The position numbers and the translations under genes are program-made. Shown one piece after another: positions 31,755 through 38,770 of a stretch of DNA of 64,000 nucleotides. This DNA comes from a virus. Lineage: Duplodnaviria; Caudoviricetes. Numbering within the stretch: the stretch's first letter is position 1; every line of letters begins with the position of its first letter. Location: the IMG/VR virus record IMGVR_UViG_3300037424_001167, positions 3,867-67,866 of that record. The stretch is one strand, 5' to 3'. The notes beneath the pieces were generated by a model, which saw only the letters and a list, made by a program, of their open reading frames with translations, did no database searches and was not told the origin of the DNA.

Positions 31755-32856
31755 TGAATTAGTGCAGACAGGGCATTTTGACTTAGAGCCAGTGACTAAT
31801 GAGTCAGATGAAATCATCATTGACGCCACTTGGGCAAGTCTCTCCGATGAAGAGTTTGATCAAGCTGCTACAGAATATCACGGGGTTCTTGATCAACAAG
31901 AGAATGTCCTCAAGATGATGACAAATGAGGTTATACGCAAGAAAGGAGAATTATACATGGCTTACAAAGCAAAACAAGGTCATGGAAAGTTTATTGGTTG
32001 GTTAGACAAAATTGGCATTTCACCACGTACTGCTCAGGAACACATGCAAACCGTCAGGGAACTGGGAGACGAACTTTCAAATACGCGCCATGGCGCGTAT
32101 TTGGGTTTTAATGTATGGAGAAAATTAGCGCGTTCTACAGAAGGAAAGCAAATTGTAGCAAAAATAGAGGCTGGAGAAATTGAACCTACTCCCAAGGCCG
32201 TCAATGCTGAGATAGAAGCGGCTAAACAGCGTGAAATGGAAGCTAAACGAGCTGCTGTAGATGCTGTTAAAGCAAAAAGACAAATAGAAGAGGAGTATTC
32301 AGCAGCATCTCAGCAGCTTTCTCTTTCACTGGAGAATGCAAAAGTCAAGCAGTCTCAACTTGAAAAAGAGATAGCAGCTCTCAAATTAGAAAAAGAGAAC
32401 ATGGCCCGCCCACAAGAGAAAATCGTCTATGACGATAAACCAGAGACGATAGAGAAGCTTGCTAAGCTTCAAGAAAAAGAATTGAAACTTAAAAGCGATC
32501 TACTAAAGAAGGAAAAAGACTTAGAAGATGTAAGAGGATATAATGCCAGGTTTGCAGAGGAAAACCGCAAGCTTACAGAACAGATGCGTGCTAGCTATGC
32601 TGATAGGCAAGCCGTTATAGGCCAAGTGCGTATTCGTGAGGAATGGAGGAAGAATATAACTAGTCTGCACGTTGCCGTATCAAAGTTCGTTGCTGAGATA
32701 CCTTCTCTCATTGATCAGGAGTCTCTAGAGGGGGATGATTGGGCACGGCACGCCCAATGTGTCGAGATATTGCAGCATGCCCTAGAAAGGCTACAGCAGA
32801 TGCGTAATAGCCAGCCAGATCCATTCGTAGATGCCACTGTTGTATCAAGCTGGTAA
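31747..32856 (+). CDS. DUF3102-like domain plus long coiled-coil protein
   Basis: HGKFIGWLDKIGISPRTAQEHM pattern; E/K-rich coiled coil. Confidence 0.65.
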   Translation: MNNELVQTGHFDLEPVTNESDEIIIDATWASLSDEEFDQAATEYHGVLDQQENVLKMMTNEVIRKKGELYMAYKAKQGHGKFIGWLDKIGISPRTAQEHMQTVRELGDELSNTRHGAYLGFNVWRKLARSTEGKQIVAKIEAGEIEPTPKAVNAEIEAAKQREMEAKRAAVDAVKAKRQIEEEYSAASQQLSLSLENAKVKQSQLEKEIAALKLEKENMARPQEKIVYDDKPETIEKLAKLQEKELKLKSDLLKKEKDLEDVRGYNARFAEENRKLTEQMRASYADRQAVIGQVRIREEWRKNITSLHVAVSKFVAEIPSLIDQESLEGDDWARHAQCVEILQHALERLQQMRNSQPDPFVDATVVSSW

Positions 32857-33194
32857 TGCCTATTGATAAATCCCGCTATCACCCAAACTTTCCCAAACGC
32901 GCTAGCTATTGCGTCAAACGAGCAAAATATACCTGCCGAGAATGCGGAATAAAGAAAGGTGACAGGTATATCACTCAAAAAGGGGATACCATGAAAGCAG
33001 TTATTCAAGCCGCTCACATCAATCATGACCCGATGAACGCAAGAGCTAAACTGCGTGCCCTTTGCGCCGTATGCCATCTGAAATATGATGGCCCAATGCA
33101 CGGCAAAAAGGCAGCGAACACCAAGAAACAGAAGAAAATCCAAATCCAAATAGATGCTGGCCAACAATATCTACGCGGATTTAAGCCTAAATAG
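32856..33194 (+). CDS. HNH-type endonuclease-like protein
   Basis: CRECG...QAAHINH...N...LRALCAVCHLKYD. Confidence 0.75.
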   Translation: MPIDKSRYHPNFPKRASYCVKRAKYTCRECGIKKGDRYITQKGDTMKAVIQAAHINHDPMNARAKLRALCAVCHLKYDGPMHGKKAANTKKQKKIQIQIDAGQQYLRGFKPK

Positions 33195-33609: not shown

Positions 33610-34170
33610 CTACACTAACTCCTGAATTGTCACCTCCCACACATAACCAACTGCAATATCGAGATAGACATTCCCGCCTGAATGCTCCTCTGTTTCACCA
33701 CTTGTATTACTGCTATTGCACATCGTATTGATCGCAAGATCCTTATACGTGCCATTAGCGTTATGAACTGTTATGATCACATTGTATGATCCATTGTAGC
33801 TAGAAGCAGGATCACAACTCCATTTGATTTTCCAGTTATCCCCAACGGTAAATATCTCAGTCTTCTTGACCCCGTTCCCTGTAAGCGTATGCGTTGTTCC
33901 CCATGCAAGGGGGCTGGGAGTGGGCATTGCAGCGCTTGTAGGTGTCAACACTACTTTGGTAACCACGGGAAGCGTGGGGACAATCGTAGTGCTATTTGGA
34001 GGCACTGGAGAGCGACTTGCCACATTGATTGCCACTGCTACAGCAAAGCAACCAGTAATTACTGTACAAATCCAACTTGACCAGCCTGAATACCTCCACA
34101 TCAAATATAATCCCACTGGGAAGAAGAGAATGAGCATCAGGATGATGCCAGTGTTACGTTTGTACCACAT
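33610..34170 (-). CDS. Membrane-anchored exported protein
   Basis: Two N-terminal hydrophobic segments, Pro/Thr linker, beta-rich C-terminal domain; start set at MWYKRN after GAAAGGAC. Confidence 0.75.
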   Translation of the reverse strand: MWYKRNTGIILMLILFFPVGLYLMWRYSGWSSWICTVITGCFAVAVAINVASRSPVPPNSTTIVPTLPVVTKVVLTPTSAAMPTPSPLAWGTTHTLTGNGVKKTEIFTVGDNWKIKWSCDPASSYNGSYNVIITVHNANGTYKDLAINTMCNSSNTSGETEEHSGGNVYLDIAVGYVWEVTIQELV

Positions 34171-34190
34171 AAATTTGTCCTTTCTGAATG

Positions 34191-34219
34191 TTGACATAAT
34201 ACCATAGACGTGGTATGCT
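34191..34219 (+). promoter_or_regulatory. Promoter for the CRISPR-like small RNA
   Basis: TTGACA-taataccatagacgtgg(17)-TATGCT with extended -10 TG. Confidence 0.75.
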
Positions 34220-34222
34220 ATC

Positions 34223-34409
34223 AGGGATAGAAGACGACGCCCGTTTGGGATTGAAACAAACATTGGTAAGGATGAGGGACAGCAGGGATTGAAGATGGTG
34301 CCCGATTGGGATTGAAACAAGCAATAGACTCATATGAAACACAATCAGCCCGATTAAGGGATTGAAACGAGCTTTACTACAAGGACTATGCATCCCGTTT
34401 GGGTACAAC
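34223..34409 (+). CRISPR. Degenerate CRISPR-like mini-array (3 clear units plus 1 eroded), no cas operon
   Basis: Units end GGGATTGAAAC at 34257, 34318 and 34368; units 1 and 2 match at 30/35; each has a CCC-loop-GGG stem. Confidence 0.7.
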
Positions 34410-34411
34410 AC

Positions 34412-34452
34412 AAAAAGCACCTCACGCGATTGAGCGAACGAGGTGTTTTTTG
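34412..34452 (+). terminator. Intrinsic terminator closing the small RNA
   Basis: AAAAAGCACCTC...GAGGTGTTTTTT. Confidence 0.7.
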
Positions 34453-34766
34453 TTGATCTTTAGTAACGCCTTTTGTTATTAAAGAAAATGGCAAAATATT
34501 TAATAACGGGAGCCCTGGGCAGTAGTGGTAAGAAGCCCAGGGCTAAAAAGGACAAACGTACAATCCGGACCGGATGTCTCCATACTACACCATGCAAGGG
34601 GGTGTGGCAAGCTCCCTCCTCACTGTTGAGAGCCTCCTCCTTGCCTCTTGCAGTCTCTTTCCACTAGATTGCCTATCCCTCTACCCGCTCCCTCAGATTA
34701 GCTCCTCAATGCGATTTCAATGTTACACAAGAATGTGGATACACTCTTCCCCATGCAAGGTGTAGG

Positions 34767-34786
34767 ATGTTGATTTAAATCAACAT
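34767..34786. promoter_or_regulatory. Perfect 20-bp palindrome ATGTTGATTTAAATCAACAT
   Basis: Seen directly; a 1-mismatch core TTGACTTAAATCAA lies at 35314-35327. Confidence 0.6.
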
Positions 34787-35008
34787 GGAAATAGGCGTAA
34801 AATAGACTTGCACAACATGCATGTTCTAGGAAGCATGTCTAAAATGCCACTGAGACCGCTTCACAGGCTGATCAAAATTAGAACATTCACACCTGCACAA
34901 CTTGCATCAGTATTTTACAAAAATAAAAATACCGACGTTAACATTTTAATGTGTATCTTTTACCATGCAAGGGGGTTATGTTCTATTACAGTATGTTATA
35001 ACAACAAT

Positions 35009-35221
35009 ATAACATTATGTTGTACATACAACCTTTAGAGTATAGTAGAGAATAATACTCAATATAACAAATTGCTATATTATATATTATATATAGAATA
35101 GTAGTAGTACTATAGTACTATACGCATATATATAGTGTAATGTTACTATTAAAAAGTACATATTAAAATATTCACATTGATTTCTTTTTCTGTAATACTG
35201 ATGCAAGTCATGCAAGTGTGC
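35009..35221 (-). repeat. Copy B of the 213-bp inverted repeat
   Basis: Reverse complement of 12787-12999 (209/213 identical). Confidence 0.95.
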
Positions 35222-35313
35222 AAGACAGTACCTGAACCCGCTCTACAGGCCAATTCATACCTTGCACAAAGTCCGTGCAGGTCTCGTGCATGTCTATTTG
35301 GCCTATTTTCTTA

Positions 35314-35343
35314 TTGACTTAAATCAATAAAGAATGCTAGGAT
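35314..35343 (+). promoter_or_regulatory. Promoter upstream of the tRNA 5' half
   Basis: TTGACT-18-TAGGAT with extended -10 TG, 13 nt before GTTCCCG. Confidence 0.6.
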
Positions 35344-35356
35344 AGCTGTAAACGAA

Positions 35357-35395
35357 GTTCCCGTAGCTCAGTGGATAGAGCACCGGTCGGAACCG
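35357..35395 (+). tRNA. 5' half of tRNA-Arg(CCG), with 3 nt missing from the anticodon loop
   Basis: GTTCCCG-TA-GCTC-AGTGGATA-GAGC-A-CCGGT-CGGA-ACCG. Confidence 0.85.
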
Positions 35396-35477
35396 CACCC
35401 TAGCATTTCCCTGCTACGCAACCAGTTGAGAGAGCGAGGCAACCAATTATTGTGATTATTGTGAAGCATTTTGAGCT

Positions 35478-35521
35478 TGGCGTTCCCGACAGGAATTGAA
35501 CCTGCGCACCCGGTTCCGGAG
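35478..35521 (-). tRNA. 3' half of tRNA-Arg(CCG) including CCA; probable attP core
   Basis: Minus strand CTCCGGA-ACCGG-GTGC-GCAGG-TTCAATT-CCTGT-CGGGAAC-G-CCA, about 80 bp upstream of the integrase. Confidence 0.88.
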
Positions 35522-35599
35522 TTTTATTGCCTTATAAACCCGCTTCACACCTCACTCTAACCCCCTTGCATGGTGAGATGCAACCAATTGAGAGGCAAA

Positions 35600-36637
35600 A
35601 TGCAAAAGAAGATTAAGAAGAGAGAGATACAGATAAGCGTATTAGAAGCTGCTAGCGATTATCTTTCATCTCCACACGTAAAAGGTCTTTCATCCCGTAC
35701 CCAGGAAGAGTACTCCCAGGAACTTGACTTTTTTACGCGTTGGTGTGCCTCTCATGAGATAGTCCAGTTATCACCAGGAAAGCCAAGAGAGTCCGTTACC
35801 TCCTTTCTTGGCATAATGCTTCATCAGATTGATCAGCACACCGTAAGGCTCTTCCTAGACGATCTAAAGGCAACCCATCCCCCTTGCAAGGGGAAAGAGC
35901 TGAGCACTTACACGATTGCCGGTTATGCGCGTGTTATTAAGTCTTTCCTGTATTGGTGCCTGAAAGATGATCAGTATGCACAATATGTAAGTGAAACGAT
36001 TATTAACAGGATAGAGAAGCCAAAGATAATTGAAACAATTATAGAGGTATTTACAACAGAGCAAATAAAAGCATTATTTAAAGCATGCGATAAGGAAGAG
36101 TCTGAACATCTTCAATTGAGAGATAGAGCTATATTGGCTGTATTGCTTGATTGTGGCCTTAGAGCAACGGAATTATGCACTCTCACTATTGGGAATGTGT
36201 CATTAGATGCAAAGGACGCATATGTGAGAGTATTGGGTAAGGGCAATAAGTGGGGAGAGGTAGGATTGGGCGATCAATCACTTAAATATGTGCGAAAGTA
36301 TATCAGAATGTTCAGAGAGCCAACAGTAGAGCACGCAAAAGAAAACAGAAATCAGGCCTTTGTGTTTGTAAACAGGCATGGAGAGCAATTAACAAAATCA
36401 GGTTTATGGAGAATATTTGACCGTTTAGGTCATTGGGCACATATAGAGGGAGTACGATGTTCACCTCATACGATGAGACACACGTTTGCTCAGATGTTTA
36501 TAAGAAATGGAGGAGATATTTATACACTCTCGAAGCTGATGCGTCACAGTTCTTTAAGCGTTACGGAACAATATCTTAAAAGTTTGCAACAGAGTGAGTC
36601 AAGGAAAGGGGCAAAGTCCGTTCTGGACAATCTGTGA
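35600..36637 (+). CDS. Tyrosine recombinase/integrase (XerD-like)
   Basis: DCGLRATE, GKGNK, SPHTMRHTFA, LMRHSS, TEQY catalytic set. Confidence 0.95.
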   Translation: MQKKIKKREIQISVLEAASDYLSSPHVKGLSSRTQEEYSQELDFFTRWCASHEIVQLSPGKPRESVTSFLGIMLHQIDQHTVRLFLDDLKATHPPCKGKELSTYTIAGYARVIKSFLYWCLKDDQYAQYVSETIINRIEKPKIIETIIEVFTTEQIKALFKACDKEESEHLQLRDRAILAVLLDCGLRATELCTLTIGNVSLDAKDAYVRVLGKGNKWGEVGLGDQSLKYVRKYIRMFREPTVEHAKENRNQAFVFVNRHGEQLTKSGLWRIFDRLGHWAHIEGVRCSPHTMRHTFAQMFIRNGGDIYTLSKLMRHSSLSVTEQYLKSLQQSESRKGAKSVLDNL

Positions 36638-36671
36638 TATGATTATCCCTAAAGAAGAAAGGACAATTACC

Positions 36672-36893
36672 ATGGACAAAGCAGAAAAGCTGAACTTGCA
36701 ATGTATTTCAGTCACGATAAAGTTTGAGCCTTTTCTCACGTGCTCAACTCAGGATTGCACACGTGAAGCAACTGTAGGTAGTGCTTCGTATGATAAGTCA
36801 AAAGAAGCATGGATGCTTATTCCTATTTGCAAGCATTGCACTATGAGAATGGCGAAGAGCTATGGAGTAGATTTAGATTTAGATAAAGATTAG
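36672..36893 (+). CDS. Small Cys-containing hypothetical protein
   Basis: CSTQDC and CKHC; GAAAGGAC RBS. Confidence 0.6.
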   Translation: MDKAEKLNLQCISVTIKFEPFLTCSTQDCTREATVGSASYDKSKEAWMLIPICKHCTMRMAKSYGVDLDLDKD

Positions 36894-36902
36894 ATAGTTA
36901 TT

Positions 36903-36935
36903 TGAGAGAGCCATTGATGGCTCTCTCTTTTTATG
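36903..36935 (+). terminator. Intrinsic terminator
   Basis: GAGAGAGCCAT-tg-ATGGCTCTCTC-TTTTT. Confidence 0.8.
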
Positions 36936-36957
36936 TGCTCAGTTAACACTTTTGCTA

Positions 36958-36985
36958 TTGACAGCTAACACTTTTATGGTATAGT
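36958..36985 (+). promoter_or_regulatory. Promoter for the packaging/structural operon
   Basis: TTGACA-16-TATAGT with TG extension; GTTGCTA overlaps the -10. Confidence 0.6.
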
Positions 36986-37023
36986 TGCTATATATGGCAC
37001 AAAGTAGCTATGAGAAGGATGAT

Positions 37024-37533
37024 ATGCAGCAAATCAATGACCCGTCATTGACTGGAACACGCGAAATAGTACGAGGCAGGAAATTAACAAGAAGAGAGAG
37101 AATAGAGGCACAAGAGAAATTTTTGGCATCGTTCTCTTTTAATGCTAATATTACGATGTCATGCAAAATTGCTGAAATTTCAAGAGAGACATTTTATGGC
37201 TGGCAATCAGAGGATCAGAAATTTGCCGAATTGTTTCGTGTTGCAGAGCAGTCCGCAAATGACGTTATACGTGCAGAGATACACAGGAGAGGCGTGGAAG
37301 GCTATGAAAAACCTATTGTGTCTATGGGCAGGGTTGTAAAAGGGCCTGATGGTGAGCCACTTATAGAAAGAGTGTATTCTGACAAGTTGCTTGAATTACT
37401 TGCAAAGGCTCGTATGCCAGAGTATAGGGACAAAGGGCAGTTAGAGGTAACAGGAGGAATTAAGATTACAACTGAATGGGGCAACGCTGCATTGGAGATA
37501 GAGGAGGGATATGTCGAAAGCTTTAAAACGTGA
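37024..37533 (+). CDS. Terminase small subunit
   Basis: HTH (ISRETFYGW), GVEGYEKP...YSDKLLELLAKA; directly before the large subunit. Confidence 0.8.
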   Translation: MQQINDPSLTGTREIVRGRKLTRRERIEAQEKFLASFSFNANITMSCKIAEISRETFYGWQSEDQKFAELFRVAEQSANDVIRAEIHRRGVEGYEKPIVSMGRVVKGPDGEPLIERVYSDKLLELLAKARMPEYRDKGQLEVTGGIKITTEWGNAALEIEEGYVESFKT

Positions 37534-38770
37534 CATAGTCGTTCAGTTGTATTCTCCTCATCCTGGTCAGGTACCCGTACATAGGAGCAAGGCGCGTTTT
37601 CGAGTGGTCCCATGCGGGCGCCGTTTTGGGAAGACGTATCTTGGATGCAATGAGCTTATCAAATTTTGCTGTGAGCACAATAGCATATTAGGCGCATGGG
37701 TTTCCCCTACCTATAGACAAAGTAAAATTGCCTATCGACTTATTAAAAATGCGATTGCTCAGCTTATTAGTCACTCATCGGATACAGAACTTACATTAGA
37801 ACTCCCCAACGGTTCTCGTATGATGTTTTGCTCATCTGATAATTATGATGCATTAAGAGGAAATGGTATACATTTCCTTGTTATAGACGAATGTGCTGAT
37901 GTGGATGAGAAGGCATGGACAGAGGTATTGCGTCCGACGCTTTCAGACACACGGGGCAAGGCGCTTTTTCTCGGAACACCCAAGGGGCGCAATTTCTTCT
38001 ATATGCTGTACCACAGAGGGCTAGACGCTATGTATCCCGATTGGGAGAGTTTCAGGGCTCCTTCCTCCTCTAATCCCTATATTCCCCCAGAGGAAATTGA
38101 GTCAGCAAGAAGAGAATTGCCAGAGGATGCATTTGCTCAGGAATATCTTGCAGAATTCCTTGAAGAGTCAGCAGGCGTATTCAGGCGAATTGACAGTATA
38201 GTTGAAGGTACGCTAGATCCTGATTATGCGCCTGTATACGGGCATGAGTATGCATTGGGTTGGGATCCTGCCAAGTATAATGATTATAGTGTTTTAATTC
38301 TTATGGACATAACTACACGTAAAGTTGTATGGTTTGATCGATTTAACCAGATTGACTATACATATCAAGTTGATAGAGTAGTACATATTGCAAAGAAATT
38401 TAATGCATTTATACTTATGGACTCCACTGGCGTAGGAGATGTGATACTTGAGAGATTGAAGGAAAAATACAATAATTGCGATGGGTATTTGCTTACTAAT
38501 CCATCAAAAAAGATATTGATTGAGACATTGCAGTTAGGCATCCAAGATAAAGCTTTTACTATGCCAAATATACCAGTAGTTATCAATGAATTGAGGCAAT
38601 TTGAGTATCATTTGAGCCCAAGTCGCAATATCATCTATAGCGCTCCTGATGGGATGCACGATGATTGCGTGATTAGCCTTGCGCTTGTCTGGTTTGCAAT
38701 TCAAATGCGTGAAATACAACCATTAGATGCTGATACGTCTAGTGCTTTATCTCAGTATGTAGGATATTGA
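37511..38770 (+). CDS. Terminase large subunit
   Basis: GRRFGKT, IDEC, GTPKG, WDPAKYND, HDDCVISLAL. Confidence 0.95.
   Translation: MSKALKRDIVVQLYSPHPGQVPVHRSKARFRVVPCGRRFGKTYLGCNELIKFCCEHNSILGAWVSPTYRQSKIAYRLIKNAIAQLISHSSDTELTLELPNGSRMMFCSSDNYDALRGNGIHFLVIDECADVDEKAWTEVLRPTLSDTRGKALFLGTPKGRNFFYMLYHRGLDAMYPDWESFRAPSSSNPYIPPEEIESARRELPEDAFAQEYLAEFLEESAGVFRRIDSIVEGTLDPDYAPVYGHEYALGWDPAKYNDYSVLILMDITTRKVVWFDRFNQIDYTYQVDRVVHIAKKFNAFILMDSTGVGDVILERLKEKYNNCDGYLLTNPSKKILIETLQLGIQDKAFTMPNIPVVINELRQFEYHLSPSRNIIYSAPDGMHDDCVISLALVWFAIQMREIQPLDADTSSALSQYVGY

Follow-up and report, generated by a model that had tools for sequence, protein, structure and literature searches.

Integration module and tRNA pieces

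The window, meaning the whole 64,000-nucleotide stretch of DNA that was analysed, belongs to a 67.9-kb phage record in which the TerS, TerL and portal genes of a tailed double-stranded DNA phage are present. The window phage is a temperate tailed phage of Ktedonobacteria (Chloroflexota), a little-studied host group, and positions 35312-36932 form its integration module, the chromosome-attachment site included. The features of this region, in map order, are the following.

35274-35292, plus strand: weak terminator-like hairpin directly upstream of the promoter, predicted by a consensus scan
35312-35329, no strand: 18-bp palindrome TATTGACTTAAATCAATA, overlapping the -35 element; candidate operator and left edge of the block shared with relatives
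35314-35343, plus strand: sigma-70-type promoter-like site, TTGACT-18-TAGGAT with an upstream TG
35357-35395, plus strand: truncated tRNA-Arg(CCG) copy, positions 1-31 exact, then CGGAACCG, with CTC deleted
35396-35477, plus strand: spacer (attP arm) with two direct repeats resembling the core half-site
35478-35521, minus strand: tRNA-Arg(CCG) 3' part from anticodon loop to CCA, the attP core
35522-35599, plus strand: core-to-int stretch of 78 bp, with a fourth repeat, GCAACCAATT, at 35580-35589 at the int ribosome-binding site
35600-36637, plus strand: tyrosine integrase, Xer-like, two domains (PF00589, 1e-34; PHROG integrase)
36904-36927, plus strand: strong intrinsic terminator at the end of the int unit; the block in common with relative L091 ends on the right at 36932

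The two tRNA pieces are exact. On the plus strand, 35357-35387 reproduces the first 31 nt of the tRNA (acceptor strand, D arm and CCGGT), and the CGGAACCG that follows represents the remaining anticodon loop and the 3' stem strand minus CTC. On the minus strand, 35521-35478 is a 44-nt 3' part that runs from the CTCCGGA loop through CGGGAAC-G-CCA. Each piece occurs once in the window, where none would be expected by chance. ARAGORN reports no tRNA in the window as it stands, and Rfam at a permissive threshold finds only a tRNA match to the 3' piece that, at 15.6 bits, falls short of the cut-off (29), while the joined halves are called as tRNA-Arg(CCG) by ARAGORN. Compared with real tRNA-Arg(CCG) genes from three Ktedonobacteria genomes, the joined form differs by 1-2 letters, all past the acceptor stem; the 44-nt piece matches through the acceptor stem, with its differences confined to the last trailer letters. 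The earlier note had described exact halves of this tRNA and proposed a comparison with the host gene; both halves match the Ktedonobacteria genes save for these 1-2 letters. Its term "head-to-head" has to be replaced, as the pieces are convergent, with the anticodon end of the 5' piece facing the CCA end of the 3' piece. The inverted 8-bp cores that it pointed out, CGGAACCG at 35388-35395 and CGGTTCCG at 35511-35518, were reproduced, and flipping the DNA between them in silico yields, as it had stated, a defective tRNA with a 4-nt loop.

The attP core contains the half-site GCACCCGGTT at 35506-35515 on the plus strand, and the anticodon loop at 35515-35521 is the presumed overlap region. Repeats resembling the core half-site, GCAACCAGTT at 35418-35427 and GCAACCAATT at 35439-35448, lie in the arm. 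All such repeats are on the plus strand, and the repeat spacing of 21/67/74 is conserved in clade 1. In relative L004, the arm repeats covary with that phage's own core. A further, B-type half-site, GAGCACCGGT, is found inside the truncated copy at 35357-35395. The prophage of Ktedonobacteria strain brp13 has four direct repeats with 18-22 nt spacing, beginning with the tRNA-derived GATAGAGCACCGGT. The B-type half-site is mutated in some relatives, to ATTGG in L003 and L097 and to TCGAT in L004.

The nearest solved structures to the integrase are XerD and XerC; these and the NCBIfam models align from about residue 20-28, and the protein lacks a separate arm-binding domain. Its catalytic residues R188, H290, R293, H316 and Y325 do not vary among six family members. 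Two small open reading frames in the vicinity (34473-35038 and 36594-36893) have no Pfam or PHROG match; therefore, no excisionase was identified.

The promoter-like site ends 13 nt before the 5' piece and is placed as at a real tRNA gene, the promoters of host tRNA-Arg genes being located 10-19 nt upstream. The window match is moderate (9/12), and all four clade-1 phages keep the hexamers, L091 having TACAAT. This agrees with the earlier statement that the 5' half has a promoter and lies outside a classical attP. No terminator-like site was detected by the window scan between this promoter and the int start at 35600, and the 78 bp between core and int contain no promoter match of at least 9/12. 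In L002, a consensus promoter is inserted in the core-to-int stretch. Downstream of the int unit, a late promoter, TTGACA-16-TATAGT, follows at 36958.

Several palindromes surround the site. A second copy of TATTGACTTAAATCAATA, with two mismatches, lies at 34768-34785, and L092 has two tandem copies of the palindrome at the -35 element. The palindrome at 35562-35575 recurs throughout the genome and is not specific to the attachment site. Another, CCCCTTGCAAGG, which flanks the site, was considered as an att arm site and rejected because about 30 copies occur throughout the window.

The arrangement is not a local misassembly, since an independent 17.4-kb Logan contig from a public run (depth 149) reproduces 35192-36100 with no differences and no inversion joints. 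None of the sequencing runs listed for this stretch is recorded as RNA. A single "skips 79" joint in run X3, with a 25-nt side, derives from a relative or from a host tRNA. A circular genome had been considered by way of contig Ga0209648_10000061; the int fragment at the start of this contig is only 85-93% identical to the contig end, so there is no terminal repeat. In the phage GenBank collection, no DNA match to 34000-37000 was found.

Integrated relatives and family conservation

Relatives of the integrase were found in Ktedonobacter racemifer DSM 44963 and in Ktedonobacteria strain brp13, where the tRNA 3' piece recurs 62.5 kb and 51.8 kb, respectively, from the int side. At the prophage end far from int lie the promoter and the 5' piece, followed after 154-184 bp by a complete, oppositely oriented tRNA-Arg(CCG). 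G107, a third lysogen, shares this layout at its tRNA end. Thus, in these relatives of the window phage, which provide the picture of the integrated state, the host tRNA-Arg(CCG) is made whole by the phage 3' piece, and the host's own 3' piece is displaced and remains beside int at the opposite end. This tRNA completion supports the view, already taken in the earlier note, that the tRNA 3' fragment next to the integrase gene serves as an attP core whose crossover region falls in the anticodon loop. The location of the promoter at the end far from int also means that integration separates the promoter from int.

In the three lysogens, the 5' piece forms an inverted repeat with the host gene of 40 nt (98% identity), 55 nt (100%) and 47 nt (89%), the 55-nt repeat including 22 nt upstream of the tRNA. 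The 5' piece is copied from the host target tRNA gene, promoter included, in truncated and inverted form. The phage promoter-like hexamers point into the host tRNA in all three lysogens. In the K. racemifer and brp13 prophages, a hairpin-plus-T-run terminator stands right after the tRNA; the window spacer has no predicted terminator for the tRNA strand. Such inverted repeats of 40-55 nt at a tRNA gene offer a natural case for the study of gene conversion and repeat instability.

The layout of promoter and inverted 5' piece recurs in related phages, where it had been suggested to look for it: it is present in 10/10 distinct phage-form relatives with int identities of 52-90%. None of 13 family members has lost the 5' piece, with int divergence down to 50%. 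The promoter (88-95% identity), the 5' piece (83-97%) and the spacer (77-96%) show constraint when set against the 68-74% at the third codon positions of int. Homology to L091 spans 35312 to 36932, i.e., from the -35 element to the terminator after int, whereas the flanks at 34771-35311 and 36933-37389 are unrelated to that phage. The left edge of homology, when compared with L091, L092 and L002, falls at 35312-35313.

The 3' piece is 98-100% identical across clade-1 phages, and the tRNA-like letters of the 5' piece decay quickly. For instance, about 11 of 45 positions in these letters distinguish L096 from L097, whose flanks are nearly identical, and the 5' piece of L002 has five changes. The end point of the copy varies from about position 31 to 52, and the anticodon loop is often damaged. 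The loop CTC is absent from the inverted core in the window, L092 and L002 and is retained in L091; loops are changed in G107, L096, L006, L004 and L003, and the copies of K. racemifer and brp13 end at or before the anticodon loop. Perfect inverted cores of 12-13 bp with the whole anticodon loop are found in L091, L005 and L097.

The promoter region varies as well. In clade 2, the original -10 element is absent, and the mutated acceptor strand GTTATCGT forms a TGnTATCGT -10 element 18 nt after TTGCAA. In L005, L006 and L096, a simple scan gives no clear hexamer pair at the expected place. L004, which targets tRNA-Arg(TCT), has TCT-type letters in both pieces, a concerted change for which simple gene conversion does not account.

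A putative promoter sensing integration, and its alternatives

The preferred reading, given a probability of roughly 0.55, is that the integration module carries an outward-facing, Pcirc-like promoter copied from the target tRNA gene, plus an extra integrase half-site. In the joined form, promoter and int lie on the same strand, with terminators before (35274) and after (36904) them. In the free phage, the copied promoter would transcribe across attP into int, and it would do so only when the prophage ends are joined. After integration, int would keep only 78 bp of upstream phage DNA. In other words, the free genome would express int and the inserted one would not, with both promoter activity and read-through into int being predictions. 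The copy being inverted, GAGCACCGGT is oriented like the core half-site and the arm repeats, so it may act as one more binding site for an integrase that lacks an arm-binding domain. The tRNA-like letters would then be passengers that decay fast in free phage lineages and are probably re-homogenised in lysogens through gene conversion with the adjacent host gene.

Certain observations weigh against the promoter reading. In lysogens, a promoter directed at the host tRNA gene could do harm, and excision would need another source of int transcription, none being evident in the 78 bp of the window. The promoter matches are moderate, and three members show no clear hexamers. As for the half-site, such a role alone would not account for the kept promoter, acceptor strand and D arm.

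Among the alternatives, a passenger relic is rather unlikely. Under this reading, part of the target tRNA gene was duplicated in inverted form in an ancestor and became established in the attP arm; the copy would have no function of its own, would persist only owing to its place between the essential arm sites and int, and would be repeatedly re-homogenised by gene conversion in lysogens. The fast, independent decay of the tRNA-like letters (L096/L097, the L002 changes, the CTC loss in the window), the varying end points and the perfect or near-perfect inverted repeats of the lysogens all fit this picture. On the other hand, the promoter part is more conserved than third codon positions of int and marks the exact edge of the mosaic block, the clade 2 changes create a new -10 element, which is not random decay, and the palindrome overlaps the -35 element and is duplicated in L092. 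Since the whole family keeps the 5' piece, in a single mosaic block together with int, it is more than a relic; the "relic of inversion" offered earlier survives as a statement about origin, i.e., an inverted partial duplication of a host gene. A function within the lysogen is quite improbable. In such a scheme, the copied promoter would fire at the rebuilt host tRNA, either as a convergent insulator that blocks tRNA read-through into the prophage or as antisense or interference control of tRNA-Arg(CCG). The promoter-like site is aimed at the complete tRNA in all three lysogens, the window spacer lacks a terminator on the tRNA strand, and the predicted transcript would carry at least 44 nt of perfect antisense to the tRNA. 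Against this, the K. racemifer and brp13 prophages already possess a terminator at that place, and the framing of the promoter together with int by block boundary and terminators is left unexplained. CGG accounts for 6.5% of the phage's Arg codons and for 7.4% of those of a host-like genome, and with such similar use there is no evident gain from lowering tRNA-Arg(CCG). The antisense regulator suggested by the earlier note belongs to this improbable reading; in its favour, the promoter does point into the complete lysogen tRNA, but no positive evidence of regulation was found.

Site-specific inversion is highly improbable as an explanation. The integrase would recombine the inverted anticodon-loop cores and flip about 115 bp to give a promoter-driven tRNA-Arg(CCG), with the window copy disabled. 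The perfect cores of L091, L005 and L097 speak for it, as do the palindromic loop centre TCCGGA and the in silico flip of L091 and L005, which gives an intact tRNA-Arg(CCG) behind the promoter; the integrase also matches models of tyrosine-type DNA invertases, though only weakly, in part, and with scores far under the cut-offs. Yet the window has only 8-bp repeats, one of them without the overlap CTC, as in L092 and L002, and loops are changed or absent in the members other than L091, L005 and L097. A segment of 110-115 bp is very short for synapsis, and the frequent damage to the pseudo-overlap resembles selection against recombination there. The flipped state occurs in 0/12 independent family contigs and in no contig of the window-phage run, the Logan contig included, contigs being unable to reveal rare minority orientations or variants. 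The integrase-flipped micro-switch of the earlier note is therefore not upheld for the window. It is just as improbable that L091, L005 and L097 toggle, by a flip of 110-115 bp, between an integration-ready state and one with its own tRNA while the window copy is locked. Least credible is a split or decoy tRNA, in which the halves would be expressed apart and joined or annealed, or the plus transcript would be an anticodon-less tRNA mimic. The halves fit one cloverleaf perfectly, and the 5' piece comes with a promoter, but the 3' piece has no promoter match, the complementarity available for joining is at most 8 nt, and hosts hold an intact tRNA-Arg(CCG) gene. Neither ARAGORN nor Rfam detects a tRNA-like RNA on the plus strand, and the leader RNA at 35350-35610 folds no better than shuffled sequences (z = -0.02), which speaks against the decoy. 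The proposed substitute arm, TAGCA/TGCTA, is indeed present in the window; its middle pair is broken, without compensation, in three of four close relatives, and the adjoining CGCAACCA is part of a repeated integrase-site-like motif and provides no acceptor end. In clade 2, moreover, the predicted -10 element sits inside the acceptor strand, which would therefore stay untranscribed. Split tRNA genes of Nanoarchaeum equitans likewise have 5' and 3' halves that are encoded apart and fit one cloverleaf; here, by contrast, there are no joining sequences, no promoter of the 3' half and an intact host gene, and the halves are parts of an attachment site.

Comparison with known systems

The attP sites of tRNA-targeting tyrosine integrases, with crossover at the anticodon loop, are known from mycobacteriophage L5, pSAM2 and P4-type elements. 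As in these, a tyrosine recombinase gene adjoins a tRNA 3' part, and integration rebuilds the tRNA and leaves a 3' direct repeat. Catalytic residues, a 3' part that matches Ktedonobacteria tRNA-Arg(CCG) genes through the acceptor stem and, in relatives, the lysogen flanks are all found. The differences are the inverted tRNA 5' part with its promoter in the arm, arm repeats that resemble the core half-site, and an Xer-like integrase that has no arm-binding domain. To our knowledge, tRNA-gene attachment sites have been described as carrying the tRNA 3' part only, and in the literature searched, whose coverage was incomplete, no description of an inverted tRNA 5' copy in attP was found. The new element is an inverted copy of the target gene promoter and 5' half fixed in the integration module of a phage family. 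The formation of attP arms from copies of the core half-site, served by an Xer-like integrase, bears on how simple recombinases gain directionality. These questions are open to direct testing, as K. racemifer DSM 44963, which harbours such a prophage, can be cultured.

The closest parallel to the preferred promoter reading is the Pcirc promoter of ICEclc. The account of Sentchilo et al. 2003 given in the review PMC5812530 describes an outward promoter at the end opposite int that lies upstream of int only in the circular form, in an element that targets a tRNA gene. The site described here, as read from sequence alone, would share both the outward promoter at the end opposite int and the tRNA target. 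It differs in that ICEclc is a conjugative element, whereas here a phage carries a putative promoter copied from the target tRNA gene with a truncated 5' part, and no second promoter beside int is evident in most members. For phage P2, Bertani reportedly put forward in 1970 a split-operon model in which integration separates int from its promoter and leaves the prophage silent for int. That model was reportedly revised after sequencing and is historical; the anatomy found here, again on sequence grounds only, would fit it. Searches of the literature on int separated from its promoter, on joint-crossing promoters and on Ktedonobacter prophages returned nothing relevant. If the promoter reading is true, the target gene itself has been built into an int switch that senses the integration state, a simple alternative to lambda-type regulatory circuits.

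A further parallel is the attP of CTXphi, a filamentous phage with a single-stranded DNA genome that relies on the XerCD of its host. This attP consists of two inverted dif-like sites about 90 nt apart that form a hairpin when the DNA is single-stranded. Similarly, two inverted core-like sites lie about 110-115 bp apart here, beside an Xer-type system. Unlike CTXphi, the window phage is tailed, has a double-stranded DNA genome and encodes an integrase of its own; its core is complete and double-stranded, and the inverted cores are damaged or absent in many of its relatives.

The tRNA pieces and their phage setting

The integration region contains the following features:

35314-35343, plus strand: promoter-like site TTGACT-18-TAGGAT, a sequence match
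35357-35387, plus strand: exact 5' part of a tRNA (5' piece)
35521-35478, minus strand: exact 3' part of a tRNA, ending in CCA (3' piece)
35600-36637: tyrosine integrase gene (int)
36904-36927: terminator after int

Both tRNA parts described in the earlier note are present, each occurring once in the window against a chance expectation of practically none. The promoter-like site at the 5' piece and the 8-bp inverted core were also found, while the arrangement, described there as head-to-head, is convergent instead. ARAGORN found no tRNA gene in the 64-kb window as it stands. When the pieces are joined in silico, ARAGORN calls the proposed tRNA-Arg(CCG), which differs from genuine tRNA-Arg(CCG) genes in three Ktedonobacteria genomes by 1-2 letters, all 3' of the acceptor stem. 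Local misassembly is ruled out because an independently built 17.4-kb contig from a public run spans 35192-36100 with 0 differences and without an inversion joint.

The source is a 67.9-kb IMG/VR virus record, most of which is covered by the window. Left of the site is a replication and partition region that encodes primases, helicases, a partition protein and an HNH endonuclease; the tyrosine integrase, TerS, TerL and portal genes lie to the right, so both tRNA pieces are inside phage DNA. In cos-type phages, HNH endonuclease and terminase genes commonly occur together as a packaging set. Here, the HNH gene (32856-33194) lies ~3.8 kb upstream of TerS/TerL (36985-38770), and the inserted int-attP module separates the two. 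AGA and AGG account for 44% of Arg codons in window ORFs of at least 200 aa, versus about 7% in a host-like Ktedonobacteria genome (20 kb), and G+C content is 45% in the phage versus 50% in that genome.

Integrated state and conservation of the layout

The hosts of int relatives are Ktedonobacteria. In Ktedonobacter racemifer DSM 44963 and Ktedonobacteria strain brp13, the int side of the prophage has the host terminator followed by a leftover 3' piece of the tRNA and then int. At distances of 62.5 kb and 51.8 kb, respectively, the tRNA 3' part recurs, and this far end consists of the promoter-like site with the 5' piece, 154-184 bp, a complete opposite-strand tRNA-Arg(CCG) and host DNA. A pattern search of 169 genomes of the class revealed a third lysogen with the same layout (G107), with 0 control matches. 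These layouts identify the 3' piece as the attP core and show that, on integration, int is parted from the promoter-like site and the 5' piece. Moreover, the phage copy in the three lysogens forms an inverted repeat with the host gene extending into the host promoter region (40 nt at 98%; 55 nt at 100%, reaching 22 nt upstream of the tRNA; 47 nt at 89%). The phage 5' piece is therefore a copy, in inverted orientation, of part of the target tRNA gene, promoter included. The distance from promoter to tRNA is 13 nt in the phage copy and 10-19 nt in host tRNA-Arg genes.

Further tRNA 3' pieces occur in these bacteria. At the int side in brp13 (L082, G002:C1 about 6938768), the 3' end of another integrase-like gene stands immediately before the leftover 3' piece, and two more orphan 3' pieces (L084, L085) lie 123 kb and 333 kb away, a pattern suggesting that elements at this tRNA-Arg(CCG) site are arrayed in tandem or have been rearranged. 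In another Ktedonobacteria genome (L086, G102:C108), unrelated sequence rather than a 5' half precedes the tRNA-Arg(CCG) 3' piece, and this site is probably occupied by another element.

Relatives gathered by integrase scans of viral, metagenome and genome collections share one order in all ten distinct phage-form sequences (int 52-90% identical to that of the window): promoter-like site, 5' piece (plus), 3' piece (minus), about 75-90 bp, int. The start of the 5' piece lies 106-206 bp from the 3' piece. In the phage form L004, both pieces are of tRNA-Arg(TCT) type (acceptor GCGCCCA / TGGGCGC), and in another, L006, TCGGT in the 5' piece pairs with ACCGA in the 3' piece; thus, both pieces track one target gene. 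In the close relative L092 (2377-2437), int-side tRNA homology is longer, reaching about tRNA position 19 (GTAGAGCACCGGT preceding the loop), and forms a 14+8-bp inverted repeat with the phage's own 5' piece, which hints at exchange between the two pieces. On the 67.3-kb contig Ga0209648_10000061 (L106/L097), an initial partial int is 85-93% identical to a complete int module near its end; this may represent two related phages in tandem or a chimeric assembly.

A mosaic block with a candidate integrase promoter

Homology among the window and its close relatives L091, L092 and L002 has its left edge exactly at the -35 (35312), immediately downstream of a weak terminator-like hairpin, and the window-L091 homology ends at 36932, just beyond the terminator. 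The flanks (34771-35311 and 36933-37389) are unrelated, and similarity resumes farther out, at about 82-88% identity. These edges indicate that promoter, attP and int move as a single mosaic block bounded by promoter and terminator.

Identity of block segments within the window, L091, L092 and L002
Promoter: 88-95%
5' piece: 83-97%
Spacer: 77-96%
3' piece: 98-100%
Third codon positions of int: 68-74%

Sequence comparison marks the tRNA-like letters as the least stable part of the block. The L002 5' piece carries five changes, and CTC of the anticodon loop is missing in the window, L092 and L002 and kept in L091. In a second clade (L096 versus L097), about 11/45 positions of the 5' piece differ and the flanks are almost identical. 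The original -10 is absent there; the altered acceptor strand GTTATCGT supplies TGnTATCGT, 18 nt past TTGCAA, so that the promoter seems to have co-opted part of the tRNA-like sequence. Other damage to the anticodon loop of the 5' copy includes AGAGGAA (G107), CTTTGGA and CTTCGGA, and in K. racemifer and brp13 the phage copy ends at or before this loop. Such frequent damage to the pseudo-core looks like selection against recombination there.

The best-supported reading takes 35312-35395 as the int unit's promoter with its leader. While the genome is free or circular, this promoter would transcribe across attP into int; after integration, it would face outward at the far prophage end. Integrated int is left with 78 bp of phage DNA, and no promoter match of at least 9/12 was found in these 78 bp between attP core and int. 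The same promoter logic has been demonstrated experimentally for Pcirc of ICEclc (PMC5812530); the window's promoter-like site and 5' piece would follow it. Overlapping the -35 is an 18-bp palindrome that L092 carries twice and that the window repeats ahead of another promoter-like site, at 34768, a pattern suggestive of a regulated promoter. The tRNA-like letters are most likely passengers, which would decay in free lineages, with gene conversion in lysogens restoring the match.

This promoter-leader reading was weighed against several others. The earlier note had considered a relic of inversion, and an inverted tRNA copy devoid of any function of its own would fit the fast decay of the letters; universal retention, promoter conservation and the block boundary do not fit, making a pure relic unlikely. 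Convergent insulation or antisense control of tRNA-Arg(CCG) in the lysogen is more doubtful still, as two prophages already carry an ordinary terminator for the tRNA and CGG usage is alike in phage and host-like genome. The integrase-flipped switch proposed earlier would regenerate an intact tRNA in L091 and the phage form L005, but the window cannot yield one, conservation of this capacity is lacking and none of the contigs showed the flipped state, so this reading is very improbable. A split or decoy tRNA, also raised in that note, is scarcely credible, since neither ARAGORN and Rfam nor folding energy and covariation lend it support. The more exotic readings lack support. An attP core adjoining a tyrosine integrase is ordinary. 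Literature searches found no report of a conserved inverted target-tRNA promoter and 5' half within an integration module, and we know of none.

Arm repeats and palindromes

The integrase is Xer-like, and its alignment to XerC/XerD models starts from about residue 20-28; a separate arm-binding domain is therefore absent. The motif GCAMCCRRTT (16 matches in the entire 64-kb window) has four plus-strand copies within 170 bp, at 35418, 35439, 35506 and 35580, the third being the core half-site within the 3' piece and the fourth lying at the int ribosome-binding site. Their spacing is conserved among close relatives, the L004 repeats follow that phage's own, different core, and exact core half-sites occur in the spacers of the phage form L003 and of G107. 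Four direct repeats, 18-22 nt apart, occur in brp13, beginning with the tRNA-derived GATAGAGCACCGGT. From these repeats we infer that copies of the core half-site serve the integrase as accessory binding sites. The 5' piece may supply an additional, outermost half-site. Since the anticodon-stem half-sites of a tRNA are mutually inverted, the half-site of the 5' part takes the direction of the other sites only if that part is inverted relative to the 3' part, and this is the orientation seen.

About 30 genic and intergenic sites across the window (for example 3833, 16295, 23426, 27214, 35562, 35880 and 58242) carry a 14-bp palindrome, CCCCTTGCAAGGGG (core CCTTGCAAGG), with 55 strand matches observed versus 1.3 expected. 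Relatives have it next to int as well, as do the prophages of K. racemifer and brp13. The palindrome is iterated genome-wide and may be a methylase/restriction or protein-binding site. The 18-bp palindrome copies TGTTGATTTAAATCAACA and TATTGACTTAAATCAATA, at 34768-34785 and 35312-35329, each overlap a promoter-like site. They lie at both edges of a 540-bp segment (34771-35311, with a 76-aa ORF), where phages that otherwise resemble each other have unrelated sequence. This segment may be an exchangeable regulator cassette with operators or be framed by module boundary sequences.
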